NCBI GenBank assembly: GCA_964016885.1
Contig: OZ024749.1
Coordinates: forward strand, 26,846,001-26,910,000
DNA from: Eledone cirrhosa
Lineage: Eukaryota
Direction: 5' to 3'
DNA length: 64,000 nucleotides
Part shown: positions 5,286 to 32,451 of the stretch, piece after piece
How positions within the stretch are numbered: the stretch's first letter is position 1
Layout of the letters: each line of letters begins with the position of its first letter
Notes under the pieces: generated by a model
What the model was told of the DNA's origin: nothing
The model's input: the letters and a program-made list of their open reading frames with translations, nothing else
Databases searched by the model: none
Made by a program: the position numbers and the translations under genes

Positions 5286-5296
5286 TCATCATTATA

Positions 5297-5470: not shown

Positions 5471-5479
5471 AAAAACAGA

Positions 5480-7102: not shown

Positions 7103-7127
7103 ATATATATATATATATATATATATA

Positions 7128-7441
7128 GTAGGCATCTCTAACAAAATACACCCCGTCCCACCACCCCACCCCATCCACACCACCCCGTCCTATGTAAAGT
7201 TATGTTGGTGCCACAACATCCAGGCCGAAACAAACGAGATCGTGTAGGTGTCATGACAAAAACCTCCCAGTCCCACACTGTAAATGTGGTTGGTGTTAGG
7301 AAGGGCATCCAGCTGTAGAAAACCCGCCAGACAGTCCTATGCGAGCAAGACAACCACTCTTGCCTCAAGTGGGAAAACTCCCGTCCAAACCCATGCAAGC
7401 GTGGAACATGGACGTTAAACGATGATGATGATGATGATGAT
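7128..7441 (+). mobile_element. RTE LINE 3' UTR fragment
   Basis: Matches 46026-46390; (ATG)n tail. Confidence 0.9.
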
Positions 7442-7551
7442 ATGTATATATAGTAATATAGTAGTGAAAGAATGAAGAATAACATGGTCGGCTGTACAAA
7501 AAGGGTTTTATTTACAGTATTAATAATTGTTTCATTGATCAGGTGATATCA

Positions 7552-7596
<45 letters not shown>

Positions 7597-7628
<32 letters not shown>

Positions 7629-10265
7629 GTTTAACGTCCATATTCCACGCTTGCATGGGTTTGGACGGGGGTTTTCCCACTTGAGGCAAGAGTGGTTGTC
7701 TTGCTTGCAGAGGACTGTCTGGCGGGTTTTCTACGGCTGGATGCCCTTCCTAACACCAACCACGTTTACAGTGTGGAACTGGGAGGTTTTTACCGTGTTA
7801 CCTACACGGCCACATTACAGCGTGGACTGTGTGTTTTTTTTGTCGTGACACCTACACGACCTCATTTGTTTCGGGCTGGATGTTGTGACACCAACATAAC
7901 TTTACATTGAAAGGGGCGGTGTGGATGGAGTGGGGGGTAGTGGGACAGGGTGTATTTTGTTAGAGGTGCCTACTGACTGTAAGGCGGGTCTTCTCTATTA
8001 CTGTGTAGCGCCAAAGATCTCGGTCCAGTGACATTGTCTTGGAAAGGTGTAAGTGTGTGAGGTCGGAATTTATCAAGTCGTCCCAGGTTTTTCTGGGTCT
8101 GCCTACTCCGTGGCTACCGTCTATTTTTATGGCCCTGCACTTTTTTATACAGCTGTCGTCTTTCATACACATCACGTGACCATACCAACGTAGTCTTCTC
8201 TCGAGTAAACAACATCTGATCCCTCTTATTTCTAATTTCTCCCTTAGTACGTTTATGCTTTGCCGTTCACGTATATTACTATTACACATCCAGCGGAGCA
8301 TGCAAGCTTCGTTTCTCCCCAGTCTACGTATATCCTCTGCACACAATGCCCAGGTCTCATTGCCATGTAACATTGCTGTTCGTATGCAGGCATCATACAG
8401 CCTGCCTTTCATTTTTAGAGAGAACCCTTTAGCGGCCAATAGTGGTATAAGCTCTCTGAACTTTTTCCATCCCGTTCTGACCCTAGCTACTGTACTTTCA
8501 GAACACCCTCCCACACAGCTGATTTTATCACCCAGGTAACGGAAGCTGTCCACTGTTTCTATAGAACCATCTGTGGAATGAGTTAGTATTCTGTGGGCAC
8601 TTGCTGCTACTTATTGCACCAGAGCACCGGCCACATATAAAATCTATATTCTTAGATAGTTTACCTGTGATCCCACTACATCTTTTATGTACCCATACTT
8701 TGCATTTGGGACATAAAATGGAGTTTCTACCTACTCCTTTCCAGATGGGACCGGTGCCCTATTTTCCTTCCTACAAACTAGAACCTTAGTCTTAGACAAG
8801 TTAACTTTAAGGCCTTTTGATTCTAGGCCATGCTTCCATGTTTGGAATTTCTTTTCTAGTTCAGCCATTGATTCAGCTATGAGCGTTAGATCATCTGCAT
8901 ATAGGAGTTCCCATGGGCAGCTGGTCTTGAACTCCTCTGTTATAGCCTGAAGGGCAATAATAAATAGTAGGGGGCTAAGGACAGAGCCCTGATGAACACC
9001 AACTTTTACGCTAAACTCTTCACAATATTCATTGTTAATTCTAACCTTGCTGATTGTTTCTTTATACATGGCTTGTATAGCTCTCACAAGCCATTCATCA
9101 ACACTTAGTTTTCTAAGGGCCCACCAGATAATCGAGCGGGGTACTCTGTCAAAGGCTTTCTCCAAGTCAACAAAAGCTAAGTATAGGGGTTTACTTTTAG
9201 CTAGGTACTTCTCCTGTAGTTGTCGTACAATGAAAAGAGCATCTGTTGTACTTTTACCTGACACAAACCCGAACTGCATTTCGTCTAGATCAATTCACTC
9301 TGATTAGTTGCGCTATTACTTTTTCTGTGACCTTCATGACCTGGTCAATTAATTTAATGCCTCTATAGTTTCCCCTATCTAGGGCATCACCTTTACCCTT
9401 GTAGCAGTTAATGATGATGCTGCTGCGCCAGTCCTTCGGAACAACCCCATTCTGTATGACTTGGTTTACTATCCGGGTGACCATAGTGTGTCCCACCGTT
9501 CCAGATGCTTTCAGCATTTCGGCAACTATTTCCGAAGGCCCAGCCGCCTTGCCCGTCTTCATGTCTTTGATCACCTTACTTATTATACTACCTTCAACTT
9601 GCACTGCTGGTCCCTCTATTGGGTCAATGTGGGGGAGACTGTCTTTCTCCCAATTATTCTCCTCATTTAGTAGCCTTTCATAGTGACACTTCCAAGCTAC
9701 CTTCTTATCAGCGTCAGTGATGGCAAGTACACCATCATCATTTAGGACACACTTCTCCCCGACAATATCACTGTTATCCTTGACACATTGCCTAGCAATC
9801 CTGAACACCTCACGTTTTTGGTCCTCGCGTTGTAGAACATGCTTGAACTTTCTTTCTTCTGCTTCCCGTCTTGCGAAGTACACTTGTCTCCTAGCTTCCC
9901 TCCTGGCCACTTGATAGTCTTCTCTACTTCCCCCATCCCGCCATGCTTTCCAAGCCTGCTTTTTGGCCTTGATTGACCTCTCCACCTTACTGTTCCACCA
10001 CCAAGTTACTCTCCTCCTGCCTATAGGCCTGCTCCAGCCACAAGTTTCATCTGTCGTCTTCGGCAGGTTAGCTTTCAGGAATTACCACTGTTCCTCTATT
10101 CATCTGCATATAGGAGTTCCCATGGGCAGCCGGTCTTGAACTCCTCTGCTATAGCCTGAAGGGCAATAATAAATAGTAGGGGGCTAAGGACGGAGCCCTG
10201 ATGAACACCAACTTTTACGCTAAACTCTTCACTATATTCGTTGTTAATTCTAACCTTGCTGACTG
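7597..10265 (-). mobile_element. 5'-truncated, frameshifted RTE LINE with an extra duplicated RT piece (10096-10265) at its 5' junction
   Basis: QFGF..STTDA..FVDLEKAFDRV..GVHQGSVLSPLLF..LLYADD..RWYGHV; very similar to 42788-46039. Confidence 0.95.
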
Positions 10266-10514
10266 TATATATATATATATATATAAGCAAAAAGATATTT
10301 AATTTGTTGGTAATTCAACAAATATATTTATAACAGATCCGAAGAACTTGACAGGAACTTAAACCGTTAAGGTCCAATTCTTGGTTATGTCACTATTTAT
10401 AAAACAAGAGTGTACCAAAGTTTTGGTACCCTTGAAATATATATAATAGCATAAATATGGTTTTATAAATATAGTCTCCATTTATTAATAAAATTGATAT
10501 ATATATATATATAT

Positions 10515-10575
<61 letters not shown>

Positions 10576-10633
10576 GGAGGTGTGCATAATAAAATACATG
10601 GAACTCTTTTAACCATCTTTTGATCTTATATTA

Positions 10634-10665
<32 letters not shown>

Positions 10666-10803
10666 GGAAAGTTATATTTAAATTGTTGGGTTACAACTAG
10701 TAAATATTTATAACTGATATAAAAGCACTCAACAAGTATTTGGAGTATATATATAATGAAATAAATATGGTTTTATAAATATAGTTTCCATTTATTTAAT
10801 ATC

Positions 10804-10875
<72 letters not shown>

Positions 10876-11660
10876 TGAAATGATATATGATTAAGGCTTT
10901 CTGTATTATATTTATCTACCTCATTATTGTATTCCAAGGTGAGAGAGATTTTGTATTGTTCACTAAAAGTTCTTGTAAATGTCAAAGATGCCAAGAAGCA
11001 GCAAATCTATGTCTGTGTATGTGTGTGTGTGTGTGTGTACGAATATATTTATGTATACAGATGTATATGTGTGTGTGTGTCTACGTATGTATTTATGTAT
11101 ACTCATGTATATGTATGTGTGTGTGTCTGCATGTGTATTTATGTATATGTGTGTGTCTATGTATGTATTTATGTGTATACATGTATGTGTGTGTGTGAGT
11201 CTGTGTGTGTATTTATGTATGCACATGTATGTGTGTGTCTCTGTGTATGTGTGTATTCATGTGTACACACACACACATATATATATATATTTATGTGTAT
11301 GTGTATTTATATATAAAAATATCTATATATGTTTATGTGTATGTGTGTATTTATGTGTACATATATATATATATATGTATATATATGTATGTGTATTTAT
11401 ATGTATATATCTATATGTTTATGTGTTTGTGTATAGTTTCACATTTATAAAGAACAAAAGGATCTGATTACAAAAGGTTTGGTAGAATGAAGTTATCTAC
11501 TTCCACTGGCAAATCAATGTCCCCACTCCACCCACCAATGTCCCCACGTCTTATAACTTGCAATCTATCCCCCACCCCCAGCCCCACCCCACCCTTCACA
11601 CATATTGCTATCTTCATGTCTATAATATGTTCACTTCCCTTCATATTTGACAGTTGAGTC

Positions 11661-12100
11661 TAACACCACCACCACCACCACCACTACCACCACCACTACC
11701 ACTACCATCACCACTACCATCACCACCACTACCACCACCACCACCACCACTATCACCACCATCACCACCACCACCACCACCACCATCACTAACACCAATA
11801 CAGCCACCACCATCACCAAGACCACTACCACTATCACCACCACCACCATCACTATCACCAACACAGCCACCACCATCACCATCACCATCACCAAGACCAC
11901 CACCACCACCTCCACCACTATCACCACCATCACCACCACCACTATCACCACCACCACCATCACCACCACCACCGCCACCATCACTATCACCAACACAGCC
12001 GCCACCATCACCAAGACCACCACCACCACCACCACCATCACCACCGCCACCAACACCACCACCACAACCACCACCACCACCACTACCACCATCATCACAT
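11661..12100. repeat. (CCA)n low-complexity tract
   Basis: Trinucleotide repeat. Confidence 0.95.
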
Positions 12101-12389
12101 ACCTCTCGTAGACTGCCAAGGTTACCCAAACCACCATCACAGCCTTCACCCTATGATAACTTTAGCATCCTGGCAAGGCCAACACTTTATTACACCTACA
12201 TATCTCTAGTATGGTGAGAATAGCGACAGGGGAGACAAACAATGGTGGGAATAAAGCTAATGATGAATGTTATAAAGAGAAATGGAATAGAATGAGATGT
12301 CTGGGACATGTGTTGAGGAAGGAAAAAAACCACTGGAAGAGAGGAGTTAGAAGACTAGAACCAGTAATGGATGTTGTGAGGTAGGATTT

Positions 12390-12970
12390 GCATTACCAGT
12401 CTGGAACCCCTATCTTGCTCAGAACATTGACCGCCTGGAAATTGTTCAGAGACGTGCAACCAAGTGAATACCCTTCATCAGGCATCTACCATACTTTGAA
12501 TGCCTTGCTTCCCTGGGCATAGATATGGATACATTGAAGCTCTGTCGTCTGGCAACTGACTCACCCACAAAATTATTAACGATCTTGCCAACAACAACCC
12601 TGAGCACCTTTTTGAATTCTATGTGTCTAACACCCGCGGACATGCCTACAAAGACAGAAAGCAGCACAGCTCCCATGACTTTCGGAAACATTTTTTCATG
12701 CTCAGAGTTGCTGAAGCATGGAACAAACTACCTGCATCAGTTATTAGCTGTCGAGACACTGCATCCTTTAAAACCTCCATGCTTCCTGAAATTCGCCAAC
12801 ACTACACCTGATATCCCCTCTCCATATACACTAACATATGTATATCATGACTCATATACTGTTCACTTTCCTGACATTTGTACATTATTCTATGTACTAT
12901 ACATGCACCATTGATGAATTGTAGTGCACCTGAGCACTATACACAATGATTTCATTATAATTATTATTAT
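12390..12970 (+). mobile_element. CR1 LINE 3' end inserted in an older RTE-like remnant (about 12280-13210)
   Basis: VWNPYL..IDRLEIVQRRATK, TRGHAYK..RKHFF..RVAEAWNKLP; (ATT)n tail; flanks show GHVLRK and RGRGRPRKIW remnants. Confidence 0.85.
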
Positions 12971-13400
12971 AAGGATGGGAACCTGAGCTAGAGTGATGGG
13001 ATTACAACCACTGATGGATGTTGTGAGGTAAAATGGAATGTGAGGGTTAGGTCATGTGTTGAGGAAGGATGTAAGTGAGTGGGGGGAAAAGAATAATGGA
13101 AATAGATGTGGAAGTAAGTAGAGGAAGGGGAAGACCAAGAAAGATATGGCTGAAGGTAATGGAGAGAGAAATGGAAGCCAAGGGTGTCTAGTACTAGTGA
13201 TGCAGAAGATAGGACAAAAAGCTTGTCATGGAGCTTGGAAAACTAATTCCTGTTTTGTGTGCTGTTTTTGTAGACCTCTAGCACACTGCTAAAACCATTG
13301 AGACCTCAACAAATACAAAGCTTTGTATCGCTTGGGTGAAGTGACTGTTTCTGCGCATGCGTGTTCATACAGTTGTTCTTCCTGTTCCGTAAAGCCATGA

Positions 13401-13450
13401 CCAGTACAAGCTGAAGATCCGCTAGCATGAAACAATTGTTCTCAGTATGG
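13401..13450 (+). ncRNA. Minimal type I hammerhead-like motif
   Basis: CTGAAGA-tccgctagcat-GAAA-CAATTG-TT with palindromic stem III and imperfect stem I ccagtacaag/ctcagtatgg. Confidence 0.6.
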
Positions 13451-13541
13451 TGAACTAACTGTTGTGTTACCACTTCTACCTAACTCGTCCCATAGACTGA
13501 GTGCTCTACCACTACGGATATTGCTTTCCAGTGTTCTACCC

Positions 13542-13599
<58 letters not shown>

Positions 13600-13603
<4 letters not shown>

Positions 13604-14500
13604 TAAAATAACAGATTAAAGTTTAAGCAAAGAATCGCTGCTTTCACCCTTAACGGGATCTTCTGAAACTAACAAAGTCAATCTGTAAACGCAGAACTGG
13701 ATATTTCAAAAAACGTTGCAACCGGAGGAAGACAGGAAGACGATACTTTGGTTCATGGTGACGTTCGCTGGCAAAGAACGGGAAAAAACGAATAATACGT
13801 CATTAATAGGAGCGGTGAAAAACAATTACGTGCAAGGACAGAACCACGTTTATGGTATAAAAGAGGTCGTAGACTAATGTTCTCTAAGTGGTGCATAGAG
13901 ACGTTCTCTGGCAATGAACGAAAAAACGAAGATAATAAGTCATATGTGGTGCGTGGAGAACAATAGCGTGCAAAGACAAAACCACGTAAATTGTATAGCA
14001 GAAGTCGTAGACTAAAATTCTAACTAGGAGACGAAATGAATCTCCGCTACAGAGTTAAGAACAAAGTAAATAAATACAATACAGAAGTAATAGGAACAAA
14101 TAAATACATACACGCAAACAGATACGTACATACACAAGCATACGCAAAACCTTACCATAGGTATACAAAACCACGCACATATAAATATGTGTATGTGTGT
14201 ATGCTTGTGTACAAATAAATAAATAATTATATAAACGTATATAAGTAAATAAATACGTATATAACAAGCGCACACACATACCTACAAATAAATACATGAA
14301 GGTTCGGAGACGTAAGTCAACTAAAACAAGAAGTACGCATATACACACACCCACCATACGTACGAACCTGCATACTCACGCAGACACAAAACTCCCATAT
14401 ACACATAACCAAGCCCTAAATACCAGAATATGTAAAAATTATACGCCAAAACAGTCATTAACAAGTTTTATTAAAAATACCTAATCACACATAACTGTTT
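13600..14500 (-). mobile_element. Putative Penelope pLTR-like segment with an internal ~135-bp tandem duplication
   Basis: Start shared with 53155-53220 and 35415-35440; degenerate hammerhead core at 13642-13665 (minus); 13760-13880 resembles 13900-14020. Confidence 0.5.
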
Positions 14501-15017
14501 TTTGTGTGTAAAGAACTCTTAGGTTTCTGGAGAATGGTGCTCTAGCTGGTTGCTAGACTTAAAAATAGCAGTCAAACTTCCTCCATATTACACCCTGCCA
14601 TCCTTAAACAAGAAATGACACAATTGAAAATGTAGTCCTAATTAGATACTCCTAAATATATGGGATGGTCATGACTGGAATGTCTTTGATAATCGGTTTT
14701 ATTAAAGAATGTATTCCTACTCTGCTGCTACACAACCTACTCACACCCTGTTCATCCACCCCCGTACTTACATCAGCCAATATGTACACTCACTCATACA
14801 TATACTTTACACTCACATATGCACTCACATACACATACACAGATATACACATATACACACACATATACACATACATACATGCACACATGTATACACACAT
14901 ACACAGGAACACACATGTATACACATGTACACAGGAACACACACACACACGTTTCATCACCAACATCATTTTTACATCCGTTTTTTTCCAATACGATGTA
15001 TGCTTAATCAAATTATC

Positions 15018-15125
15018 ATTCTGATGATTTGATTAAGCATACATCGTATTTAAAATTGAGTGACACAACTTCAAGTGATTAGCAATTTTAAGTCAACTTA
15101 ACCAATGAAACAATTGTTAATACTG
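15018..15125 (+). ncRNA. Hammerhead-like motif with extended stem II
   Basis: CTGATGA-T-TTGATTAAG...CTTAACCAA-T-GAAA-CAATTG-TT; the downstream tail matches the reverse complement of 7450-7540. Confidence 0.6.
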
Positions 15126-15341
15126 TAAATAAAACCCTTTTTGTACTGTTGACCATGTTATTCTTCACTCTTTCACTATTATTACTCCAAGATTAACTTA
15201 CATAGGAACTCCCGAGAACTCATATACTCGCTACCTAAGGAAAGCTCTTGTTGAGTCAAACAACGGCGTATGCTAAAACTATCCACAATACGGAGTATTC
15301 ACAACCTCTAACTGGATTACCTATAACGATAATTTGTTATC

Positions 15342-15389
<48 letters not shown>

Positions 15390-16829
15390 GTGTGTGTTTC
15401 TATGTCTGTGTTTATATCTACTATATGTTTATGACCCATAACTTAGTAATTTGACAAAAAGGGATTGGTAAAAATAAGTACTGGGATCAATATGACCGAC
15501 TAAAATCCCTTCAAGATGGTGCCCCCAGCATGGCCACTGTCTGATGACTGAAAGAAGTAAAATAAGATAAAAGAATAAGAATAAGTAATCTTCTGCCTGT
15601 TATGTAAGCAACACAGTATGATCAGTGGATTTTGAAACTGGAAGAAAACTTCATATGAAATTATTTTCAAATATAGAATTTCTGGTTTTCATATTTCAGT
15701 AAGATTGTTGGCATTTTACCAAAACTTATGGAGGAAACTTAGTGAAATTTAGTGAATTTTTAGGATTTTATGAAAACTTTTAAATAAAATCTGAGATCCC
15801 AAATAAATATTTAGTGTTTGTTTTGAATTTTTTTTTTATTCAATTTCAGAGAATTCTTCAGCCTTTCCCTTAACCCTTTCATTACCATATTTCTAATGAA
15901 ATACACTCTACATTTGCTTCTGTTAAGGATTTTGTAATATAACTAACTTTCTTATTATCAAACTAGTATTTACAACATACCTTAACAAAAGATTCTTAAA
16001 TGAAATTATGAAAATTAGATAAAAACTGAAAACACTTTGAAACAGGTTTTTGCATCATAGAAACAGGCACAGTTTCAGGTTGTTTTGTATTAAAAGGAAA
16101 GAGATTTTTGAAATTTCAATGAAATCTCCACATCTATATTCTGATATTTAGGACCCATTACTAAAATACATCAGTAGTTTTAAATGGGTAGTGAGAGCTA
16201 CATTTCACATGTAGCCTGGGCTTATTACCAGTTTTGGGGCTTACATATTGCATCTGGCATGGGCCTATTACTAGTTTTGGGCCTGGGCAGATTAGCAGCT
16301 ACAGCGAATTACGTTTTACATCTGGTTATGGCCTATTACTAATTTTAATGAATTAAAATTATACCTATACAAATGAGGAAAACCCAAATCAGGGGAGATA
16401 ATCTAACCCAAATTAAGTACCACGGGTATGTACTAATATATAATTCTATTATGTTTTTGTACGTCACGCGAAGGGAGGTAACTCCTCTATGTTTCAGTTA
16501 CCTGTGTTACTCATTCATACGCACACACACTCATACACATATGTGTGTGCATGTAATAATTATTTTCCCTGAGTCTGTTTATGTGTATGCTTGTGTAGAT
16601 GTGTGTGTATGTAATAATTATTTTTAACTGGCGTTCTTAGATTGGCTACACTTTTGTGGGTGTATATGAGTGTTGTTCAAGGAGCCAAGTCCCTAGCAAT
16701 ATCGAAATAAATTAGAATTATCGAGAATATAAAACGACCGCAGTTGAAAGGTATATACAAATACACATCTGCTCTTTAGCCGTTATTTTTGACGGCACGG
16801 GGCCAGTTAGTACAAATGTACTTGAAAGC

Positions 16830-16995
16830 AGCGATAAACTGGACTCCACCTCGCAGCAAACAGAAGCGGGATTGCCCCAGGATCACCTGTTGAGGAACGT
16901 TCCCAAAAGACCTGATGGCAGTCAACATCACTTGGCACAGACGCGAAAAAGCCGCCGCTGATCGTGATCGTTGGAACCTAGTTACTGCGCGGAAA
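16830..16995 (+). mobile_element. Old RTE-type LINE 3' fragment
   Basis: WTPPRSKQKRDCPRIT...AAADRDRW resembles RTE C-termini. Confidence 0.55.
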
Positions 16996-17559
16996 GGTGC
17001 GGAAGAACCTAAGAATATGCAATATATCGAAATCATGACTCCTCATAGTTAGTAAATGTTAGACCAAGGGACATAACAAGGTATGACATTATGTAAAGGG
17101 AAATAACTCTTGCTTTTCCAGGTATACGGTGTACTGATTATAGACTAGATACATATAGTAACAAAGCCAGAAAGAAACAGTCGATTATATCAACGCCAAT
17201 ACTTGACGGCTGCTATATTTTTATTGACCCCGAAAGGATGAAAGGTAAAGTTGACTTCTGCAGGATTTGAACTCAAAACCCACAAGGCATGGTGTCACTC
17301 TGATACACACATACATGAATACATACATACATGATGGTTGCCTCCTCGGTATCGAGTATTAGAATTTTTTTCGTAACCGTAATACAATTTTCTGTTAGTT
17401 GACCTAAACTAAAGGGCTTCACTGATAGGGTTACATGTGTTGTAATTTCCCAGTTCCATGTTATGGAAAGAAGTTGTGGTGAATCTTTGGAATAGTGCTC
17501 AATAAATATTAATGGCCCTAATATTTGTTGCCATGTTCAAAAGTGGCCCGCCGATGGAA

Positions 17560-17765
17560 TATGTTGCACACCCAGCTCTAGAGTGTGTCTGCCTAGAATA
17601 TGGTGATGGTAAGCGCTCAGACGGGATAACCCTTTTCATGTTCAAGGGAGGTAAGTCTGCGACACGTTCTCCGCCTCCAGTTTTAGTCGAATCGGTCCCA
17701 AGCCCAGGCACTGCTGTTCGTAAGGCGGAGGCGAGAGAGATAGCTAAATATCGGTACTTATTTTG
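17560..17765 (+). mobile_element. CRE/NeSL-type non-LTR retrotransposon fragment (restriction-like endonuclease)
   Basis: DGKRSDGITL..FKGGKS..GTAVRKAEAREIAKYRYL matches the RPDG...AE..K..KY..L motif. Confidence 0.65.
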
Positions 17766-18230
17766 CATATACATATGAGTTATTTTTGTTCATGTGGTTA
17801 ATTATTTTTACATATATTTCATTATTGCACTAGAGCTTGATGAACACAACCACAAGGATATGGTCCGAACGTGGAAGAGCCGAACTCCCACTGTCATCAC
17901 CACCATCTCTCTCGCCCTCCTCATCTCTCGGTATGATGAGTGGGTTACGTACAAAACGTCATTTTGACGTTTTGCGTGTCGATTTCAGTATGGACGTCGC
18001 CCCTTACTTTTGCTATGTAATTATTTCTCTCTCTCTCTCTTTTTAATATGCAAACGTTAATGGGTTGTTCACTACTTTCTTATCTTGAAATAAATATATA
18101 GTTTCACTTTTATTTTGATATATATATATATATATATTCTAGATCTGGAGGGTGTGGTTTCGAGGAAATGGCTGAACGGAATATTTCGATGCGTTTGTTT
18201 ACATTTCGTCTATCGCTTAGAATTTTGTTT

Positions 18231-18327
18231 TTACTTGTTTAAATATTTCGTTAAATATTTTTACTTGTTTAAATATTTCGTTAAATCAAGTATTTACTTG
18301 TTTAAATATTTCGTTAAATCAAGTATT
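18231..18327. repeat. Three tandem copies of ttacttgtttaaatatttcgttaaat
   Basis: Directly visible, upstream of the 18717 ORF. Confidence 0.9.
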
Positions 18328-18514
18328 CCAGAGACCTTTTAAACACTTTCAAATGACTTGCAGAAATATATTTCGCTTTAAATGACGTTAGGCGCCGATA
18401 TATTCCGATGAATACCGGAAATAGGCGAAAGCTATCTGAATGTTTAACAATTATTAAACTAATTAAAGTTTCCATTTTAATTACTACATCGTTTTGTTTT
18501 TTCCTCTATGGATA

Positions 18515-18714
18515 TATATAAAACTGGTCAAGTTGATATTAAATTTTCGGCTTAGAAAATAACACAATCTCGTTCATTTCAATACACCCACCTAATTATG
18601 AACTTTTGAATTCACTTTCTCTTCACGGTATACCAACTCTGTAAATGTTATCAACTGTTATTTACTAACACAGATAATCATCGGTAATTTCCTTGCTTTC
18701 TTTTATTTTCTCAG
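18515..18714 (+). promoter_or_regulatory. TATA box and probable short 5' UTR intron for the 18717 ORF
   Basis: TATATAAAA 18515-18523; candidate donors at 18628 and 18641; TACTAAC branch point 18663-18669; pyrimidine tract and CAG ending at 18714. Confidence 0.55.
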
Positions 18715-18716
18715 TA

Positions 18717-19520
18717 ATGGAGACAAAATGTATTTTCCACCATGAGACGTTGCAGACTTTCTGTTCACGTTGTTCATCTCCTAAACACTTTTTTAAAATA
18801 GCTATTGAACTTGGCTTGAATGTTATTGCTATCAAGACTTTAGAAGAAATATTTATGAAAAACGACTTCTTCAGCCATAAGCTGTATTATGCCTTCAGAG
18901 CATTCATCAGTACCCGCTCTGACCGAACAAATAAAGAAATATGTGACGAAATTGCCGAGAGGATATATAAGATTGAGAATGATGCTTTAATGGTAGATAT
19001 ATTCAATGAATTTAGACGATACCGTAAGTGTGCTGATCGTGGTTGTAGCCATAAAATAACTACCACCCTTTATCCAATTATTGAATGGAAATCTTTCGAG
19101 GAAAGTAACGACGTTATATTATCAAACCAAGACCTTTTAATTTTGGCAGAAACAATATCTGATTCCAGCGCCCCTTTTGCCAGCGAGCTAGGATTATTAG
19201 ACTACTATGCAGTAATTCTGAATAAGTTTCCAACAGACGAACACGAGTGGCGTAGGAAAGTAGAAATTATCTTTAAAGGCCGAGAATTTCATACTGATGG
19301 TCTTTTAGATCTCCTTAACAATAATGATTTCTTTATTAACCACAATAATGATAACAAACTGGATGTAAGGGAAATTTTGGAGAAAAAGAAAATAGCGATT
19401 AAGACAGGTGTGGAAAACGAGAAGAAAAAAGAAAAAAGTGAGGAAAATAAAACTGAGACAGGTGTGGAAAACGAGAACATCTATATCAGAATTAGTAAAA
19501 TACATCATTTACCCCAATAA
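18717..19520 (+). CDS. 267-aa protein with two death-domain-like repeats and a Lys/Glu-rich tail
   Basis: Uninterrupted complex ORF in AT-rich DNA; FFKIAIELGLNVIAIKTLEE and LSNQDLLILAETISDSSAPFASELGL resemble death-domain helices 1-3. Confidence 0.6.
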   Translation: METKCIFHHETLQTFCSRCSSPKHFFKIAIELGLNVIAIKTLEEIFMKNDFFSHKLYYAFRAFISTRSDRTNKEICDEIAERIYKIENDALMVDIFNEFRRYRKCADRGCSHKITTTLYPIIEWKSFEESNDVILSNQDLLILAETISDSSAPFASELGLLDYYAVILNKFPTDEHEWRRKVEIIFKGREFHTDGLLDLLNNNDFFINHNNDNKLDVREILEKKKIAIKTGVENEKKKEKSEENKTETGVENENIYIRISKIHHLPQ

Positions 19521-19981
19521 CCACGGTCGTTTTTGTTTTTTTTCGCGCTTTGGTTATATATTTTGGTGCATTGTTCTTAGCAATAGTTTATTGTATTTGT
19601 TATGTTTTTATATTTTCATTCTAAAATAATTGTGAGCAATTTGTTATGTTATTTATGAGTATACTTAAAACTTTAAAAATTTATTTGCGTAAAAAAAAAA
19701 TAAAAAAAAAATGTGAGAAATAATATCACAAAGAAATCAACGCTGACTCCGAATTATTGAACTCCGAATTGATTTGTGCCACAGCGTAGTCCGGTGATCT
19801 TTTGATGTAATATGACAGACACTTCCGCATTCTCCACCTGTGAAAATGACTCGAGAATTTTGCTTGCTCAGTAATCGTCAGCATAATTTTATGCAATTTT
19901 TTTTTCTCTCACTTTGATTATATATTTTTGTGTATTATCATATTTATAAGGTTCCAATCAATAATTAGTTATAAATATATT

Positions 19982-20461
19982 AGGGCGGTGGATTGGCAGT
20001 ATCGGTGGAGGGTCGGACACCATGCTTTGACGCATAGAGTTACGTCCCTTGCCATTCTGTGTTCAAATCCCGCCGAGGTTAACTTTGCCTTTCATCGTTA
20101 CGGGGTCGATGAATAAAGTACCAGTGATGTACTTGTATAATTCCTGGCCTTAACCAAAAGTAGAAACAATTATAAATATATCATGTGTGTTTATTTTCAC
20201 ATCAGTCAATACTATCTTGTTATATATAATTGTTACTTATTTTTCTTAGATATTAAATCACTCGATTTTAATCATTTTTGGTTTTATGTTTATCATAAGA
20301 TAATTCCATGCTTTACAACATAGAGTTATGGCCGTTTACAGTCTGAATTCAAATCCTGCCGAGGTTAACTTTGCCTTTCATCCTTACGGGGTCGATAAAA
20401 TAAAACACCAGTAATGTACTGGGATAATTGCTGGCCTAGTGCCAAAAGTAGAAACAATTAT
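19982..20461 (+). mobile_element. Two SINE family A copies (19982-20172 full, about 20320-20461 truncated)
   Basis: Head gggcggtggattggcagtatcgg, B-box gttcaaatcc, conserved core and tail. Confidence 0.9.
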
Positions 20462-20482
20462 TCTATGTACTATACATGCACC

Positions 20483-20962
20483 TGTAAGCCACCGGAAATA
20501 ACATCTGTGAAATATACAGCGCCATCTACCTGTTAGCTAGCTACTTCAACGTGAAACAAAAGAACCCTTAAAACCTATCAGAATAAACGCCTATACATCG
20601 GCTAAACATCAAACGATTGTTTCTGTATAAATAGAGTGGTTCCAAACACTTCGCTAGTCGACTTTTGGCAGAGTCAGCTAGCACATCGTTGTTCCTCGCC
20701 TCTGCCACCCCTTGTACCTCGTATTGTCGCTTCATGTGAAAATAAATATCTGATCCAATTTACATCTTGCCTTGCTTCGTCCTTTCAACTTGTGCTTTCG
20801 TCTGTCCATCCTCAACAGTTCTTTTAAGGGCTATATGCGACAACAGTCCTTTTAAGAGCTATCTTCAGATCTGATCAGACCGTATGCGATAAGAGTCCTT
20901 CTAAGGGCTATTCTCGGATCTGATCAGAAGTAGTGACTAGACTGACTAACCACGTCGCTACA
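20483..20962 (+). mobile_element. 5' LTR of Gypsy element
   Basis: TG...CA termini, TATA-like and AATAAA motifs, directly followed by a PBS; 5' boundary approximate. Confidence 0.7.
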
Positions 20963-20964
20963 AT

Positions 20965-20981
20965 TGGTGACCCGAACGTGA
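20965..20981 (+). promoter_or_regulatory. Primer binding site, tRNA-Trp
   Basis: TGGTGACCCGAACGTGA is close to the complement of the tRNA-Trp 3' end (TGGTGACCCCGACGTGA). Confidence 0.8.
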
Positions 20982-21009
20982 GTCGAACAGCACCTAAGAA
21001 AATATCAAC

Positions 21010-23290
21010 ATGGGCATGTCACAAACGACAGAGGCCGAGATTTCGGAGCTGCGGGCTATGGTCAGAGAGCGGGCTGGTCAAATTAAAGCCCTCTCGAATC
21101 AAGTAGAGAACTTGACCTTTCAAACACACAGGCGACGCAGCAACATTCGATCCAGGCCTTTTCACAGTAGTCCCAGTCAAAATCGTGTGCCTGGCAACCT
21201 CTGCTGGTATCACACAAATTTCGGCGCACAGGCATCTAAGTGCAAAGCCCCGTGCTCTTTCCGGAATGCCACCCAGGGCCTAGCGACGACGTTCACGCCT
21301 GGTACTGAAAAGAAAAGTCGTCTATTTTTTATTAACAACCAGGCGACAGGCATCCGTTACCTCGTGGATACAGGGGCCCAGGTTAGTGTTATTCCTGTTT
21401 CACTAATCTCGGGCAAAAGACACCCAATCCCGTCCTTTTTGCAGGCAGTGAACCAATCGTCAATTCCGACTTTCGGGGAGAAGTCTCTGACCCTCAATTT
21501 AGGCCTGAGGCGGCGTTTTCAATGGGTGTTCGTCGTGGCAGACCTGCCGACCCCGGTCCTAGGAGCCGATTTTCTCCACCACTTCAACCTTCTGGTGGAT
21601 ATGAAGAACCGGAGGCTTATTGACACCACCACAAACCTCCCTGTGAGAGGTATATTTACCACGCAATCCACAGTGAGCCCTGTAATTTGCCAGTCAGAGC
21701 CTTCGCGTTACAACGGCATTCTCCAGAAATACCCAGACATCACTCGCCCGGTATTTAAGGATGGTCCCATTACGCATAGTGTCACGCACCACATCGAGAC
21801 AAAGGGACCACCCACAGCTGCCTGACCAAGGAGACTGCCTCCAGACCGATTGAGAATCGCCAGACAGGAGTTCCAACACATGCTGGACCTCGGAATCATT
21901 CGCCCTTCCTCCAGCAACTGGTCTGCACCCCTACACCTTGTTCCAAAAAAAAACGAGAATGATTGGCGACCATGTGGGGATTATCGTGCACTTAACAATT
22001 CTACAGTGCCCGATAATTACCCTGTACCTCACCTGCACGATTTTTCCGCCTCTCTGCAAGGCGCAAGCATCTTTTCCAAGGTAGATTTGGTGCGTGCATA
22101 TAACCAGATACCAATGGAGCCTGCAGACATTCCAAAGACCGCAATCGCAACACCGGTTTATTCGAATTCCTGCGAATGCCGTTCGGTCTGCGCAACGCTG
22201 CACAAACTTTTCAGCGGTTTATTGACACCGTGTTACGCGATCTACCCTTCGTATATTGACGACGTACTGGTAGCAAGTGCTTCCGAGCATGAACACGAGA
22301 AGCACTTAGATCTCCTTTTCCGACGTTTGGCTGAGTACGGTATCATCATCAACGCCAGCAAGTGCCTTCTCGGCGTTCCTTCACTGTCCTTTCTCGGGTA
22401 CATCATCGATAAAGACGGCATTCGTCCACTTCCCGAGAAAGTAGAAGCTATCCGCAGTTTTCCCGCACCTACATCACTTCGGAAACTGCGTGAATTCCTC
22501 GGTCTGGTGAATTTTTATAGGCGGTTCATCCCTCATTGTTCCGACGCAGCCAGACTCCTCACGGACCTTCTTCGTAACCAGACTCGCAAAAACGAAGAGA
22601 TCACTCTAAACGAGGAAGAATTAACATCTTTTAACCGCCTGAAGGAAATATTGGCAAACGCTTCCATGCTCGTTTTCCCCAGGTCTGGTGCTCCTCTTTC
22701 GCTGCTAGTGGACGCATCAGACACGGGGGTTGGAGGCGTTCTACAACAACATTTCAACGGCGTGTGGCAACCCTTATCCTTCTTTTCTAAGCGGTTGCAA
22801 CCGGCAGAAACGAAATACAGTACCTTTGGCCGCGAACTCTTGGCAACCTATCTTTCGGTTAAGCATTTTCGGCACATGCTCCAAGGATCAGATTTTGTGA
22901 TCTACACGGACCATAAACCATTAGTTTATGCGTTCCGTACCAAACCTGATAGACATTCACCGAGAGAACTCCGACACCTGGATTTTGTCTCCCAATATTC
23001 AACTGATATTCGGCATATCAAGGGATCAGACAACGTAGCAGCCGACGCACTGTCCCGAATCCAGCTGAACACAATACATGTGCATTCAGGCATCGACCTT
23101 CAACAGATCGCAGCTGACCAAGAGACTGACGAAGAGTTTATCAAGCTCCGAGATTCGCCATCCCTCAAGTTTCAGCAAGTTCCCATTCCTTCTTCTCCGG
23201 GACAAATTTGATGCGACTTTTCTACCGGTCATGAACGACAGATGCATCGTCGACAAGTTTTTTCTGCTTTACACTGCTTGTCTCACCTGG
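21010..23290 (+). mobile_element. Ty3/Gypsy CsRN1-clade gag-pol pseudogene, truncated at the start of integrase
   Basis: CHCC knuckle CWYH..C..C, protease [28 protein letters not shown], RNase H VDAS..TDHKPL..ADALSR; stops and frameshifts. Confidence 0.93.
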
Positions 23291-24468
23291 GAATCTTTGG
23301 TTTGTTTTTATCCTTCTATGTTGTTCACTTGTCCCCCTCGCTTTACGCGATTACTGGTCCCAATAACTTTTTTTAGATTATTGCTCGCACCAACCTGAGG
23401 TATCTGATTTTTAATGCGACCTGGACTACAACGGCAAATCCAGGAAATCCAGTCATTTCTGACGTGTATAAGTTGCTTTATAAGTGTTATTTGTTTTTAC
23501 TTGTTTGCTTTTGATAAGCTTGTCTAATAAAATAAATATATACTCTGTTGATTTAATTATATGAACTGATAAATTTTTTTAAAATGTGTTTTTTCTTGAA
23601 AAGTATGAAAATTTCGAAATATCAAACTCTTTACTACAAACCCAAACTTCTGATTAAATAATAGTGTTTTTTTAAATAATAATGGGATATAACAAACCAT
23701 GAAATGATACTTAGAACTGGGGAACAAAAAATATGTTACACGGTGTAATCGAATGGAAAGAAGTGCACCTGAATGACTAATTTAAAAGCGTGTATCCCAA
23801 TATCCCAGTGGCCCATTTCAATCTTTCTTTCAAATTAGGCTAACACACTTGGACTCACACACACACACACACATATACTCGCACGCATATTTTTCCCTTT
23901 TTATTATATACATATTTGCACACGCCTTACACTACATAACCTTACATTCATACACCCACAAACATCCCACTAAACACACTTACATTCATGCGCACAGATG
24001 CATATATCATACACTTTTCCCCATACATTTCACAACGTGCATGCTCAAAATTTTAATGTTTTCATTTCATTTAACTTAAATCTGCCTTCGAAACAAGTCA
24101 ACTCTGATCGATCCTTTAAATCTCTCACAGGGATAGTCCCTTGACAATGGGTTTTTAAACCCCAAAATATTTGGGATTATCAAATTTGCTAAGGTAAGAT
24201 TCTATTGTTATCTTGGCACTTTTGATTTTCTAGTGCATTGTATGGTTTTCAAAATTTGTGTTTCCTATTCAACAATGCGTCAAGCAAACTACAACACTGT
24301 TACATATATATATATATATATTTATTTAGGTTTGAGCTGGATAGAGCTGGTCAATTCCGTATAGTCAATCTTGATGTAATAATATAGAGAGTACTCAACG
24401 TAAAGCAGTTCAACCGTCTTCGTTTTTGTAGTTGGTGGTGCGAGTACGGAGTTAAATATTATATTTCG

Positions 24469-24575
24469 AATACCTGATATCACCGGATTCATACGGAACC
24501 CGGTCATTGAAATGATCATAGTATAATAAACCTTTCAAGGATTTACACAAGTCCAGCCTCCTGTTATTTTATTAT
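24469..24575 (+). ncRNA. Degenerate hammerhead-like motif and pLTR-like tail
   Basis: ATAC-CTGAT(-)A-tcACCGG..CCGGT-catt-GAAA-TGATCA-TA-GTAT; tail resembles 60200-60257. Confidence 0.55.
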
Positions 24576-24633
24576 AATATTATATATATATATATACTTA
24601 ACTTCTTTTTCTTTTTTCTTTTCAATGGACACA

Positions 24634-24792
24634 CTAGAAGAGGAAGACCAAGGTTAACATATGTTGATGTCCTAAGGACAGACACTGGTCTGTTGGAGAC
24701 GCACGACATGGCAGCGATAATGAGGGACAGAGACTGCTGGAGAGAACTCGTCCATGGATCTCGGGAATTTTACCCACCTTAGATAGATAGAT
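24634..24792 (+). mobile_element. RTE-type LINE extreme 3' fragment with (TAGA)n tail
   Basis: RRGRPRLTYVDVLRTDTG..MRDRDCWRELV. Confidence 0.7.
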
Positions 24793-25279
24793 ACTTAACT
24801 TCTGCTGGACACCACCAGAGGGCAATAGCCCCTGGTGTTTTTTGCATAGCTACGGCTTTCTAAATGTTTATCTATAAACATACTGTGTTTCTTCAGAAAT
24901 ACGAAATTCTAATACATATCTGTATACAGCTATGTCTGAAGCTAAATAGTTGACTATAGTATATTATTTTAGACAAAATGTTATATTGTTTCAATCTTAA
25001 TGAAATTTAAAATTACATGTTGTTAACCCGGGCTCTAACACCTTGTAAACTTTGATCGACAGTGAAACATGTAATTAAATATGTTTATGATGCAACACTG
25101 ATTCTTTGTTCCCTATATATATATATATATGAGTGTGTGTGTATGAGTGTGCATGTGTATAAGCGTGTGTGTCTGTATGAGTGTGTGTGCTACACGGGGC
25201 ATAACATATTGATTTGATTGGCGGTTTCAATAAAACATGTTAGGCAAAAGCAGTGAAGAAAACCAAAAGAGTGAAAGGC

Positions 25280-25325
<46 letters not shown>

Positions 25326-25489
25326 AGAGAGAGATTGATTGATAGATTCAGAGAGGGAGAGCTAGTTGACTGATCAACCTTGCTACTTGCAGTAAACCAG
25401 TTTGCAAGTAGAGACATGCATTTAGATCTGTATGGTGTGTATATGTGAGTGTACATATGTGTGTGTGTGTTGATCAAACCAGGATTTTA

Positions 25490-25584
<95 letters not shown>

Positions 25585-25729
25585 GAAAGGTATAGAAAAT
25601 ATTGTAGCAAAAAGCCAATATATATATATATATATATATATATACCAAGTGAAATCAGGGGTAACCAGTTAAGAAAGGTACTCAATACATTAGTAGAGTG
25701 GCAAACTTCGTTATCATTATTTAATATAG

Positions 25730-27428
25730 AAAGGGTGGTGGATTGGCAGTATTGGTAGAGGGTCGGAGGCCCTGCTTTGACGTATAGAGTTACGGCCCAT
25801 TGCCCCATTACCATTCTGAGTTCAAATCTCGCCGAGGTTAACTTTGCCTTTCATCCTTACGGGGTCGATAAAATAAAGTACCAGTAATGTACTGTGTAAT
25901 TACTGGCCTTGTGCCAAAAGTAGAAACAATTATTTAATATAGAAATTACTTCTACTGGACTAGAACTGTTTCGTTCATTTAAAACCATAAGAAATGCCTG
26001 ATCCTGATGATTTCATATGATTGAAACAATTCTAGTCCTGTAGAAGTCATTTCTATATTAAATAATTGTTTCTACATTTGGCACAAGGCCAGCAATTACC
26101 CAGTGCATTACTGGTACTTTATTTTATCGACCCCCGTAAGGATGAAAGGCAAAGTCAACCTCGGCGGGATTTGCACTCAGAATGGCAATGGCCGTAACTC
26201 TATGTGTCAAAGCATGGTGTCCGACCCTCTACCAATACTGCCATCCCAATCCCCCACCCCCATCGACACCACCCCTTTCTTTGTAAAGTTATGTTGGTAC
26301 CATCCAGTCCTAAATAAATGAGGTTGTGTAGGTGTCACGACAAAAAAACACAGTCCATGCTGTAATGTGGCCATGTAGGTAACATGGTAATAACCTCCCA
26401 GTCCACACTGTAAACGTGGTTGGTGTTAGGAAGGGCATCTAGCCATAGAAAACCTGCCAGACAGTCACGTACGAGCGAGACGACCAATCTTGCCTCAAGT
26501 GGGATAATTCCCATCTAAACCCATGCTAGCGTGGAAGATAAACGTTTGATAATGATATATATATATATATATATTGGAAAATGTGTGAGATCCTTGGTAC
26601 AGTTAGGTATATTTGAAAAAAAGGAAAAGAATGACTTCACTTGTAGTGTTAAAAAATTTGATTTAATATAATATAATATTATGAGTGGCAGTATCGGTAG
26701 AGAGTTGGACGCCATGCTTTCCAGCATAGTTACATCCCTTTACGATCTGAGTTCAAATCCCGCCGGGGTTGACTTTGCCTTTCATCCTTACGGGGTCGAT
26801 AAAATAAAGTACCAGTAATGCACTGGGTAATTGCTGGCCTTGTGCCTAAAGTAGAAACAATTATGAGTTGGTAGATCTACCAACTCAAAATTTTATTTGA
26901 TTTGGTCGAGCCATTTGAGAATGCATAAGGAAAAGACAGACAGACATACAGACAAAGAATTTTATATAGAGAGAGATGTATTGCTTATTTCAAGATTCAC
27001 TTCTGTTAAAAGTTTCAAATTTCAACTTCTGTTATATCGCGTTGATATCATAACATTTTGCTGTAAAGTCAGGTTTGTTAGTATACCTGGGATGTTGTAT
27101 ATAAAATAATGAAAATTATTGTGCACAGTACTTTGCTGCATTACCACTGTTGTTCTTTGATTTTATAAAATATTCTATCTGATGTTCTAATGACTCTGCC
27201 AATTGGACACCCTTTGAAGAAATAGAGATAATATATAAATAATTGTTTCTACTTTTTGGCACAAGGCCAGCACTTATCCCAGTACATTACTGGTACTTTA
27301 TTTTATCGACCCCGTAAGGATGAAAGGCAAAGTTAACCTCGACGGGAATTGAACTCAGATCGTAAAGGGACGTAACTATGCTGGAAAGCATAATCCAACT
27401 CTCTACCGATACTGCCAATTCACCGCCC
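25730..27428. mobile_element. Cluster of four SINE family A copies (25730-25932 +, 26061-26243 -, 26682-26863 +, 27240-27428 -) and an RTE 3' UTR (26265-26555 +)
   Basis: Repeated matches to family consensus sequences found elsewhere in the window. Confidence 0.9.
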
Positions 27429-27439
27429 TTATATAAATA

Positions 27440-30400
27440 ATGTTGAAATAAAACAGTCTAAATCTAAAATACATGCCTACCTGAAAAGTCATTCTTACCA
27501 GCTAAAAAACCACAATGTTTCAAATGTGGAAAAAACACACATTTAAAAACATTTTGCCCAATGCTACATGCGGAAAAACAAAAGAAGGCATTGCTGCCAA
27601 CCCCAAAACCACAACAGACACACCTGAAAACAAAAAACACAACCTGCAAACCATCAACATTCACCCAACCATCACAAACCACAAAAGACACCACACCAAA
27701 AATTCCCCTGAAGGACTCTGTCCCACCCCTTCCCCCTCTGCCTAACACTCCCACAAACACCCCACCACCACACAACATACCCCTCCCACATACCCACAAT
27801 GATAACACCTCTGAGACGGGAACCTCTACATTTCCAAGTGAGGATGAAGAGGAACCCCAAAAATCCAAGAAGCAAAAAAGACAGAAAAAATACAAAAACA
27901 AAAACATAAACAGAAAACACGCACACACTTAACACTGACATAAACATACCACTACAAACGACAACCACACCAACAACACAACCAAACACTTCACCAACAA
28001 AACAAACACCCACACCACTACAATCACAAACCCCAACCACAAAATGAAAACTACAAACAAACAGTACACATAAAAAACAAAACACATTACACATACATAA
28101 AAACAAGAAACAAAGAATTGGTGGAAACTGTCCAAAAGGACCCCACAATCCAAACGGAAGGGAAAACCTTCCCCAACAACGCCAAACCCTAAACTAATCA
28201 GGGTAACAACCCTACAGCACGAAACATTAAAAGTGAACTTCCCACATGATGTGGGCCCCCCTTGCCAAAAACCCCTTGACTGCGTCCTGCTAAAAGGATT
28301 CCCTCCCTCCTCAAACACCTCCAGGAAACAAAAAGGTAAGTGTTCCTACCTTTTCTCCCTAACTCTTTTTCACCAACATGGCGACTATACAAGTTGGATG
28401 TTTGAATGTACGTGGCCTGGGCATGCCTTGGAAACAGGGCCAGTTTTTAAATGATCTCAGGTCACGCTGTAAAGATGTGATAGCCATCACTGAGTCCAGG
28501 ATTCACAACAAGCAGCAGCTAACCCCCGTGTTCGATGATTTTGAGATCTACGCATCTCTCTGTAGCCAGGAGGTGGAGGGGGAGTTGCTGTTCTGTTTCG
28601 AAAAAACCTGGATCTCAAAGTACAGATGATTCACTTGGACCCGGAGGGCAGCCTGGTGGTCCTGGACGTGAATGGTAGTGAAGGTGGAGCTTTCAGACTG
28701 GGGCCGTATATGCCATGACTGGGACATCGCGACCAGAGTTCTTCAAGCATCTGGAGCTATTCCTGGGAATTTCTCGCTCCTTAGTGTTAGCGGGGGACTG
28801 GAATGGCATCTTAGACACACATTGGGACTATGTAGGAACTTGTGATAATAGGGGGGGGGGGGGGGGTGTAATTGCCTTAAAAATCTCATCAGCCAATTCC
28901 AACTGGCTGATAGATATAGACTAGACTTCCCAAGTGCACCACTGTGGACGTGGAGCAACTGCACTGGGTCTTCTAGATCGTATTTAGATAGATTTTTAAT
29001 TAGACAGAATGATAAGGAAACATTAAGCTGTTCACAAATGCACATGATTGCCTATTCAGACCACAAATTAGTCACCTGCATAAGCAACCTTGATAGAACA
29101 CATAGACAGGGAACCGGATACTGAAAGCTAAACATGTCACTCCCGGTGCGTAAGGCCTACAGTAAACAGATTAACACCTTAGTTAAGAGCTAGTTGACGG
29201 GGGCCATCGTCAACACAAGTAGTGGAGCTCACTCAAGAGAACAATTAGAATAGAATCGATAGCATTTAGCAAGGAAGTAGCTTTAGAAAAAAACAAAACT
29301 GAAAAGAAACTGGTAGAGGCACTTAGAAATGGCAGTACAGCTGACGTGCTAATGGCGAGAATGGCACTAGACCAGTTCTTCAACGTGAAACACGAAGGTT
29401 GTATTGTCAGAAATAGAACACGTGCTCTAAGAAACGAGGGAGCCAAGGCTGTTAGCTGGGCCCAAGTGGCAACAAATCCACAATTTGGTTTTTGAAAGAC
29501 AAAGATGGACGCATTCTACTTGAATCCAAGCAGATGTGCACAGCCTTCCAGCAACACTTTGCACAACTGTTCGGGCAAAGCAATATGTTGAGTGAGGTGG
29601 ACTTCAGTTCCTACCACGACTCTCGAGCAAGGATGCAGAGAGCTGCAAAAGGCCAATCACAGCAGGTGAAATAGAAGATGCCCTAGGTTGCTGTGGGAAA
29701 TGCAAATCACCGTTTAGATGGTCTACCCTATGAGTTTTACATAGGCATGCCAGACTTGTTCTCTGGCATCCTCAAAACGGCCTACTGCAATTAGCAGCAG
29801 AACGGGAGGATTCCCAGTTCTGTAGGCAGAGGCGTAGTAATGCTGATCAGGAAAGATGAGAACAAGGGGAATGAGATAAGCAATTTCAGGTTCATAACTC
29901 TGCTCAACATAGAATGAAATATTTTGGCCAAGGTGTTAGCAACAAGGCTGGCACTTGTCAAGAACCTGGTAGGAGAAGCACAAACATGTGCAATCCCGAC
30001 CAGGTCCATACATGACAACCTCCACCTCATGCGATACATCAAAGAGAGGGTAGTGTGTAAACCTGGCTTCGTAGGGGCTCTGATCAATTTAGATCAGTTT
30101 AAGGCATTTGTTAGGGTCGACCATCAATACTTGGAAGCGGTTCTCAAGGCGGCCAGCTTCAGTCCCATCTTCAGAGGCTGGATCGCTGCCATATACACCA
30201 GCATCTGCTCAGCAGTCAAGGTGAATGGCTACCTATCGGAGCCATTCATGCGTTTCATCCGTTAGGGATGCCCTCTCCTCCAATCTGTATGTACTGATTC
30301 TCGAGTCGTTACTGCAGAAGGTGGAGCTGTTGCAGGGCATCCTAATTGAACCAGGACTGCGAAAAGCAGCGTCGGCCTATGCCAACAACGTAACCGTAAT

Positions 30401-31950: not shown

Positions 31951-32149
31951 AGATATCTTACAAGATGAGTTGCAATATTACAGCTTTACTGATGAGATAA
32001 CAAGGAGGGAGGAATGAAGGAAGATAATTTCCTTTAAAAAAAAAAGAATCTTGGAGGTAATTGTTGAAGTTATATGTATATCATCATCATCGTTTTAATG
32101 TCCATGTTCCATGCTAGCATATATACATATATATATTAATATACAAATA

Positions 32150-32408: not shown

Positions 32409-32416
32409 ATATATGA

Positions 32417-32451
<35 letters not shown>

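Follow-up and report, generated by a model that had tools for sequence, protein, structure and literature searches.

The 64,000-nt window of Eledone cirrhosa DNA analysed here (the whole stretch, on contig C9) contains a gene that is best read as a member of an unannotated octopod family, with a predicted layout of two death domains only and an unusually marked excess of amino-acid changes separating its two very recent genomic copies. On balance, we lean towards an octopod host protein that acts on immune or cell-death signalling, be it as decoy or as adaptor; its copies have diverged nearly exclusively by amino-acid change.

The open reading frame and its product

From the letters of the DNA, the initial annotation had described an intact frame of 267 aa that carries the motifs IAIELGL and FASELGL and lacks an effector domain. 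This description stands: the frame (P0001) is present (Table 1), the motifs occupy residues 28-34 and 154-160, and a Pfam search of the protein gave nothing over the cut-off. Translation is supported indirectly by the kept reading frame and by the annotation of homologues. In the K/E/N-rich tail, in-frame indels distinguish the two genomic copies.

Table 1. Positions of the features discussed, numbered within the window.
Feature	Positions	Strand	Remark
Segment shared with G000:C14:39090447-39138791	694..47473	+	0.85% substitutions outside the ORF
Dispersed repeat	17779..17940	.	many genomic copies at 88-95% identity
Lone end of a dispersed element	17947..18010	.	element occurs elsewhere in inverted pairs
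Three-copy tandem repeat	18230..18325	+	30/33-nt spacing, 26-nt core; one copy in the C14 version
TATAAAA, putative promoter element	18517..18523	+	ends a short (TA)n run
TACTAAC, pyrimidine tract and CAG, putative 3' splice-site-like signal	18663..18714	+	before the ATG
Single-frame ORF, 267 aa (P0001)	18717..19520	+	start position agrees with octopus homologues
Domain 1, predicted six-helix death domain	18729..19040	+	residues 5-108
Domain 2, likely second, more divergent death-like domain	19113..19391	+	residues ~133-225; low model confidence
K/E/N-rich tail	19329..19478	+	56% K+E+N; internal 22-nt duplication
Dispersed repeat fragment	19530..19688	.	77-91% to other copies; directly after the stop codon
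A-rich run after dispersed repeat	19691..19711	+	pure A run in the C14 copy
Second dispersed-repeat fragment	19897..19973	.	companion of 19530-19688
Right copy of the 3.4-kb direct repeat	47474..52762	+	with a 1.8-kb extra stretch

Structure prediction and profile comparison point to death domains

AlphaFold2 with two sequences gave a pLDDT of 36, and a fold search on that model was uninformative. With five true homologues, six helices were predicted at residues 9-107 (residues 1-110). The pLDDT of ten-residue blocks ranged from 53 to 85, mostly about 70-85 with a dip to 53-62 at residues 31-50, and 72 residues lay at 70-90. Since the alignment contained true homologues only, the death fold was not imposed on the model. 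On this predicted model, domain 1 has the six-helix bundle of the death-fold superfamily.

Comparison of domain 1 with 48,161 chains using VIA-align yielded five chains with Z >= 8, all of them death domains: FADD (3ezq_B; Z 9.4, rmsd 3.0, 94 aligned), ankyrin-G (4o6x_A; Z 9.3, rmsd 2.3, 90 aligned), FADD again (6aci_H; Z 9.1, rmsd 2.4, 87 aligned), an oligomeric death-domain complex that we take to be that of PIDD (2of5_H; Z 9.1, rmsd 2.3, 90 aligned) and p84 (1wxp; Z 8.5, rmsd 3.0, 86 aligned). For the predicted model, ranks 1-7 are death domains, while the best DED reaches Z 7.5 and the best CARD Z 7.1. Judged by title, 48 of the 50 best rows are death-fold proteins. According to the tool's own note, Z 9 can be reached by chance for helical bundles; the match list is nonetheless coherent. 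Foldseek displayed ten rows with a probability of at least 0.47 (0.47-0.90), again all death domains, at E-values of 1 or worse.

Profiles were also compared with death domains of the same genome, of which 12 were kept in the alignment and 6 of 18 loci omitted as near-duplicates or short matches. In global mode, domain 1 scored P 0.0007 and domain 2 (84 columns) P 0.004, both above 70 of 70 block shuffles. In local mode, domain 2 gave P 0.001, a score reached by 1 of 60 block shuffles, and 7 of 60 reached the score of domain 1. Compared with each other, the two domains did no better than block shuffles (10/60 reach the score). An HMM of the 18 own-genome death domains gave P0001 2.4 bits, reached by 10 of 500 shuffles, and the protein has no score over the Pfam cut-off for the Death domain subfamily PF00531. 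Atlas feature matches to Death clusters (0.82-0.87) are leads only. The tryptophan of helix 4 occurs in 12/12 own-genome death domains, and the aligned residue in domain 1 is F63. For domain 2, the model has pLDDT <50 at residues 114-207 and ended at residue 207, probably short of the last helix.

Taken together, domain 1 is very probably a death domain, as judged on the predicted model, and the profile comparisons make it fairly likely that domain 2 is a death-like domain. The two death-fold repeats of the initial annotation have thus fared differently: structure prediction and two fold searches bear out the first, and the second is upheld more faintly.

Relatives are detected in octopods

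A HMMER scan of 1.84 billion representatives returned two matches (E 4e-20 and 1.4e-6), named in their sources as uncharacterised proteins, one from Octopus vulgaris and one from Argonauta hians; a protein of Octopus sinensis is a further relative, being a member of a matched cluster. CAI9725488.1 (O. vulgaris), XP_036360574.1 / LOC118764210 (O. sinensis) and GAB1609508.1 (A. hians, with long insertions) are the only detectable relatives. They resemble the window protein in their two-block layout, start position and invariant motifs, but their identity to it is about 30-35%, and no domain is annotated in them. In the alignment, the invariant patch of the family comprises AIKTxE, TR, K73, D77 and R82; the AIKT(L/M)E patch in domain 1 is common to 5/5 aligned sequences. 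Per domain, the window protein, O. vulgaris and the argonaut are 30-41% identical, and the identity among the three octopod lineages is star-like at 30-35%. The O. vulgaris and O. sinensis proteins have 239 of 257 residues in common.

Word-seeded protein searches at near and at longer length gave 0 matches, the profile search returned P0004 alone, and no Pfam death-fold match was obtained for P0001-P0004. Sequence searches of the PDB brought nothing relevant (best E 0.016, a short stretch of BBS9). Within the genome, both homologue queries retrieved the two copies only, and neither a third copy nor a parent gene, parent caspase or sensor domain was found among the best candidates, which were scored. 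In the literature outside subscription journals and supplements, we found no paper on this gene or LOC118764210 and none on tandem death domains in invertebrates or lineage-specific octopus death-fold proteins. We infer a vertically inherited, fast-evolving octopod gene.

The gene lies in a 47-kb segment present twice in the genome

The second copy of the ORF lies at G000:C14:39109597-39110370. The segment common to both contigs starts partway through a repeat, which is complete on C14, and ends in a 50-nt minisatellite. On C9 it is flanked by a 3.4-kb direct repeat, whose left copy starts 2.7 kb (2740) before the window and ends at 694; the two repeat copies show 19 mismatches in 3467 columns. 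Because the repeat cut at the left junction on C9 continues intact on C14, as it does in other genomic copies, and because the minisatellite at the right junction is longer on C14, we regard C14 as the unbroken side and C9 as derived. The sharing is best read as a duplication at the DNA level and less likely as a misplaced haplotype; it does not look like retroposition or element cargo. Movement of the 47-kb segment as a transposon was considered and rejected, because the segment starts in the middle of the repeat left unbroken on C14 instead of at the end of an element. The inter-contig duplication, the 3.4-kb target duplication and microhomology of <=1 nt at the left end form a pattern like that of template-switch or circle-mediated insertion.

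Several other elements were noted. A Pif1-like helicase fragment (window 5569-5979, + strand, E 1.3e-13), possibly a Helitron relic, is internal to the segment. Frames resembling Gypsy gag/protease and RT/RNase H (window 20998-23211, + strand), recognised by eye from motifs, stand in both copies with 26 substitutions in 2182 positions; we found no LTR pair around them, and the 267-aa ORF lies upstream of them. RTE-like LINE frames, also recognised by eye, occupy window 42785-46039 (+) and 7960-10081 (-); the former was likely inserted after the copies split, because it has no collinear match in the C14 segment. The minisatellites at 47225-47471, 36891-37033 and 38685-38896 (units of 50, 49 and 72 nt) have many more copies in the C14 segment. 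Outside the duplication, a Gln/Ser-rich open frame of 409 codons (window 57057-58286, - strand) without a Pfam match is likely a host exon.

Four public sequencing runs (X1, X2, X3 and X4) were available from two samples of one study, none of them recorded as RNA. Both versions of 18937-19119 (0 and 12 differences) occur as separate contigs in 4/4 runs, and the copy differences are therefore not assembly or polishing errors. A further variant of the window-type ORF, with an in-frame 3-nt insertion at 19297 and one other difference, was found in X1, X2 and X4 and was absent from X3; it represents a standing in-frame polymorphism.

The versions could also be alleles of one polymorphic locus, encoding the same protein under the same selection, with one haplotype misplaced into C9 and diversity kept by balancing selection, much as in a recognition gene. 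Heterozygosity in marine invertebrates is on the order of the 0.85% background divergence seen here, and the 3.4-kb repeat at the flanks might represent an overlap that was never merged. The similar contig depth of the window-type and C14-type versions in the DNA-like runs fits either reading. However, neither the 124 kb of C9 nor the 120 kb of C14 contains an N. At the left junction, moreover, no more than one base is shared and a repeat is cut on either side, which an overlap join would not require. Both versions also occur in both samples, together with the third in-frame variant in X1, X2 and X4. We regard alleles as unlikely, if worth keeping in mind, and infer that the C9 copy is a true duplicate.

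The kind of run X3 is without record. Contigs from this run span 18698-19700 and extend to 20371 or beyond at a depth of about 30-110; upstream, where cover is even in X1, X2 and X4, they give little or none. Both versions are represented, and the contigs continue past the A-run. This pattern looks RNA-like, although holes in contigs prove nothing. One X3 contig (18698-18821) carries C14-type letters at 18718-18741 and window-type letters at 18780-18789, which is either a switch of the assembly path or a recombinant version.

The two copies differ mainly by amino-acid changes

Outside the ORF, 232 of 27,252 unmasked positions differ between the copies (0.85%), compared with 30 of 577 (5.2%) inside it (18717-19325). 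When the flank was divided into 47 equal bins, leaving out tandem repeats and 5 columns around gaps, the mean was 4.9 differences and the highest values 20/577, in a non-coding bin, and 11; none of the 47 reached 30. The sequence adjacent to the ORF shows 3/164 differences on the 5' side and 1/411 on the 3' side.

Over codons 2-203, we counted 30 nonsynonymous changes in 444 sites and 2 synonymous changes in 117.5 sites (dN 0.071, dS 0.017, Fisher p 0.022); codons 21, 22 and 50-52, which lie beside indels, and the tail after 203 were omitted. At the rate of the flank, 3.6 nonsynonymous changes would be expected instead of 30 (p 7e-18). A codon model gave omega 4.2-4.6, and its likelihood ratio favours positive selection at p 0.013-0.023, a test of dN > dS that rests on one pair with 2 synonymous changes. 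All six ORF indels have lengths divisible by three (9, 15, 3, 33, 9 and 3), the last two in the poorly aligned tail, and neither copy contains a stop or frameshift. The nonsynonymous changes are spread over both domains (15 and 13). Judged from the counts only, the copy differences show no significant depletion at conserved columns (6 of 61 positions versus 24 of 134, or 5 of 64 versus 21 of 128). The comparison between copies had been proposed in the initial annotation; the nonsynonymous excess that it uncovered, the strongest signal of the analysis, is invisible from the window alone. A dN so far above dS likely reflects strong diversifying selection, probably an arms race around a surface that binds other proteins.

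Rapid divergence and omega >1 are also typical of reproductive and conflict genes, and a role in the germline, in gamete recognition or in an internal genetic conflict (drive or toxin-antidote-like) would fit the star-like identity of 30-35% as well. Death domains occur, in addition, in proteins without an immune role such as ankyrin-G and p84, ranks 2 and 5 of the fold search. Most structural neighbours, in contrast, are domains of apoptosis or innate-immune signalling, and the protein has no evident signal peptide or membrane segment (sequence judged by eye). We therefore rate a non-immune role as rather improbable.

Still less credible is the decay of one copy under relaxed selection, with the peak over the ORF arising by chance or as a conversion tract from an unseen divergent copy. 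Outgroups polarise 14 of the 31 amino-acid differences, 10 on C14 and 4 on C9; some of the C14 changes hit conserved sites (D194, G195) and could mean the loss of an old function, and with so few synonymous changes dS may be as high as about 5%. Decay is nevertheless opposed by the excess over the neutral expectation, by the intact frames with their in-frame indels, by the lack of a third copy in the genome searches and by neighbouring non-coding DNA that is not raised in divergence. Diversifying selection on two intact copies remains our preferred reading.

Local signals, repeats and the origin of the gene

The signals that had been described around the frame are present. The triple 26-bp repeat represents a recent local expansion, because it is single in the C14 copy. 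The TATA box is a sequence match to a putative promoter. TACTAAC stands at 18663-18669, followed by a pyrimidine tract and CAG at 18712-18714; this splice-site-like signal is identical in both genomic copies, and TACTAAC occurs six times in the window (both strands). For the proposed introns (18641/18684-18714), no contig joint was found among the joints listed for the four runs, in which contigs lose rare forms and the joints listed were mostly repeats. One X3 contig is collinear through 18698-18714, with 17 letters before the AG, under the 31-letter bridging rule. The A-rich run is one of two such runs in the window, and the sequence shared by C9 and C14 goes on at both sides of it.

The picture of a compact, nearly repeat-free island did not hold. 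Three kinds of dispersed repeat lie within the region 17830..19920. The repeat at 17779-17940 was found at 38 other places among the 40 matches listed, and the element end at 17947-18010 has no partner end within 124 kb here. Freedom from long microsatellites is not distinctive, as it applies to 212 of 620 windows of the same size (34%). With about 47 kb of flank in common between the two copies, a separate 2-kb unit does not exist.

An origin as viral or transposon cargo or as a retrogene, with the protein acting as a captured death-domain decoy, had been suggested and is extremely improbable. In its favour are the intronless ORF, the A-run 170 nt past the stop, the repeat fragments on both sides and the viral FLIP MC159 at rank 8 of the fold search (Z 7.5); against it, there are only two copies with ordinary genomic flank in common, the homologues occur in octopods only, no viral structure matched with E <= 0.001, a search of viral contigs brought up no relative (of 129 pattern matches, 0 were confirmed), and neither element ends, partner terminal repeats nor dispersed copies were found. 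A retrogene is further opposed by the lack of an intron-bearing parent among the candidates scored, by an A-run that follows a dispersed repeat rather than unique mRNA sequence and by the duplication of 47 kb of DNA. Nor is the compact layout unlike that of host genes, as had been claimed: FADD and CARD+DD genes that occupy a single frame are nothing unusual in this genome, and they are equally compact. An ancient capture, before the split of octopus and argonaut, may have taken place.

Proposed function and significance

Signalling by death domains proceeds through homotypic docking, which builds them into oligomeric platforms. The octopod protein would dock by such contacts on FADD-, death-receptor- or MyD88-type assemblies and, lacking a caspase-recruiting or catalytic part, would damp or reroute them; with two death domains and a charged tail, it could only bridge or block. 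Its invariant face would bind a host partner, with the other surfaces pushed by an antagonist, and a pathogen or a changing partner probably drove the divergence of the copies. We prefer a decoy to an adaptor because a canonical FADD is present and because an identity of 30-35% among octopods ill suits a core adaptor. Together with FADD, the divergence of about 65-70% alongside a small invariant patch favours a competitive decoy or modulator.

A bolder and rather doubtful idea casts the octopod-only DD-DD protein as bait or as a sensor of non-self, with surfaces that were remodelled while neutral sites diverged by only a fraction of a percent. In that case, pathogen proteins that attack death domains would bind it, or mismatched versions would trigger cell death, and cephalopods would possess a polymorphic recognition module that is built on death folds and belongs to none of the receptor families described.

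Descriptions of cephalopod innate immunity rest mostly on homology with genes known from vertebrates and flies. A gene of this kind escapes Pfam and BLAST; death-fold inventories of molluscs miss such fast-evolving members. For copies only 0.85% apart, an omega near 4 over the whole gene is rarely seen and is the mark of an active conflict. With about 30 substitutions on a near-identical background, the two copies amount to a natural experiment.

Comparison with known death-fold systems

The protein resembles FADD and CRADD/RAIDD in having two death folds in about 200 residues and no enzyme, and the FADD death domain is the top structural match of domain 1. It differs in its N-terminal domain, which is DD-like, whereas that of FADD and CRADD is a DED or CARD that recruits a caspase. 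No DED match was obtained at the locus, nor was a CARD there among 23 CARD matches. The genome holds both canonical layouts elsewhere: a FADD-type gene on C24 (G000:C24:25926649-25927182) has DED and DD in one open frame, with 186 aa from the first Met, and G000:C2:233.68-233.83 Mb carries a tandem cluster of CRADD-like genes in which CARD and DD share a single frame of about 219 aa. Some members of that cluster are shorter or split, and three pairs have pN/pS of 1.0, 1.1 and 1.9. FADD and CRADD are reported to be conserved in molluscs, including a cephalopod (PMC11463336).

The short form cFLIP-S and the viral FLIP MC159 are tandem DED decoys with a short tail and no effector. MC159 matches domain 1 with an rmsd of 2.7 over 85 residues at its Z of 7.5, but it is a DED and not a DD; true death domains score about 2 Z units above it, and no sequence link to FLIP was found.

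Like the window protein, CARD16/17/18 of primates are death-fold-only products of segmental duplication. At their rapidly evolving locus they are reported to serve as competitive inhibitors (PMC11383037). Each is a single CARD that was copied from caspase-1 and has been kept similar to it, whereas the gene studied here has two DD-like units and copies that were driven apart; measured against CARD-only and PYD-only decoys, it has only two copies and no close parent caspase or sensor among the candidates scored. By the features compared, the window protein is thus not a member of FADD, CRADD, FLIP or COP, and it plausibly works like these known death-fold adaptors and decoys, with the primate CARD-only proteins as what may be its nearest functional analogy.
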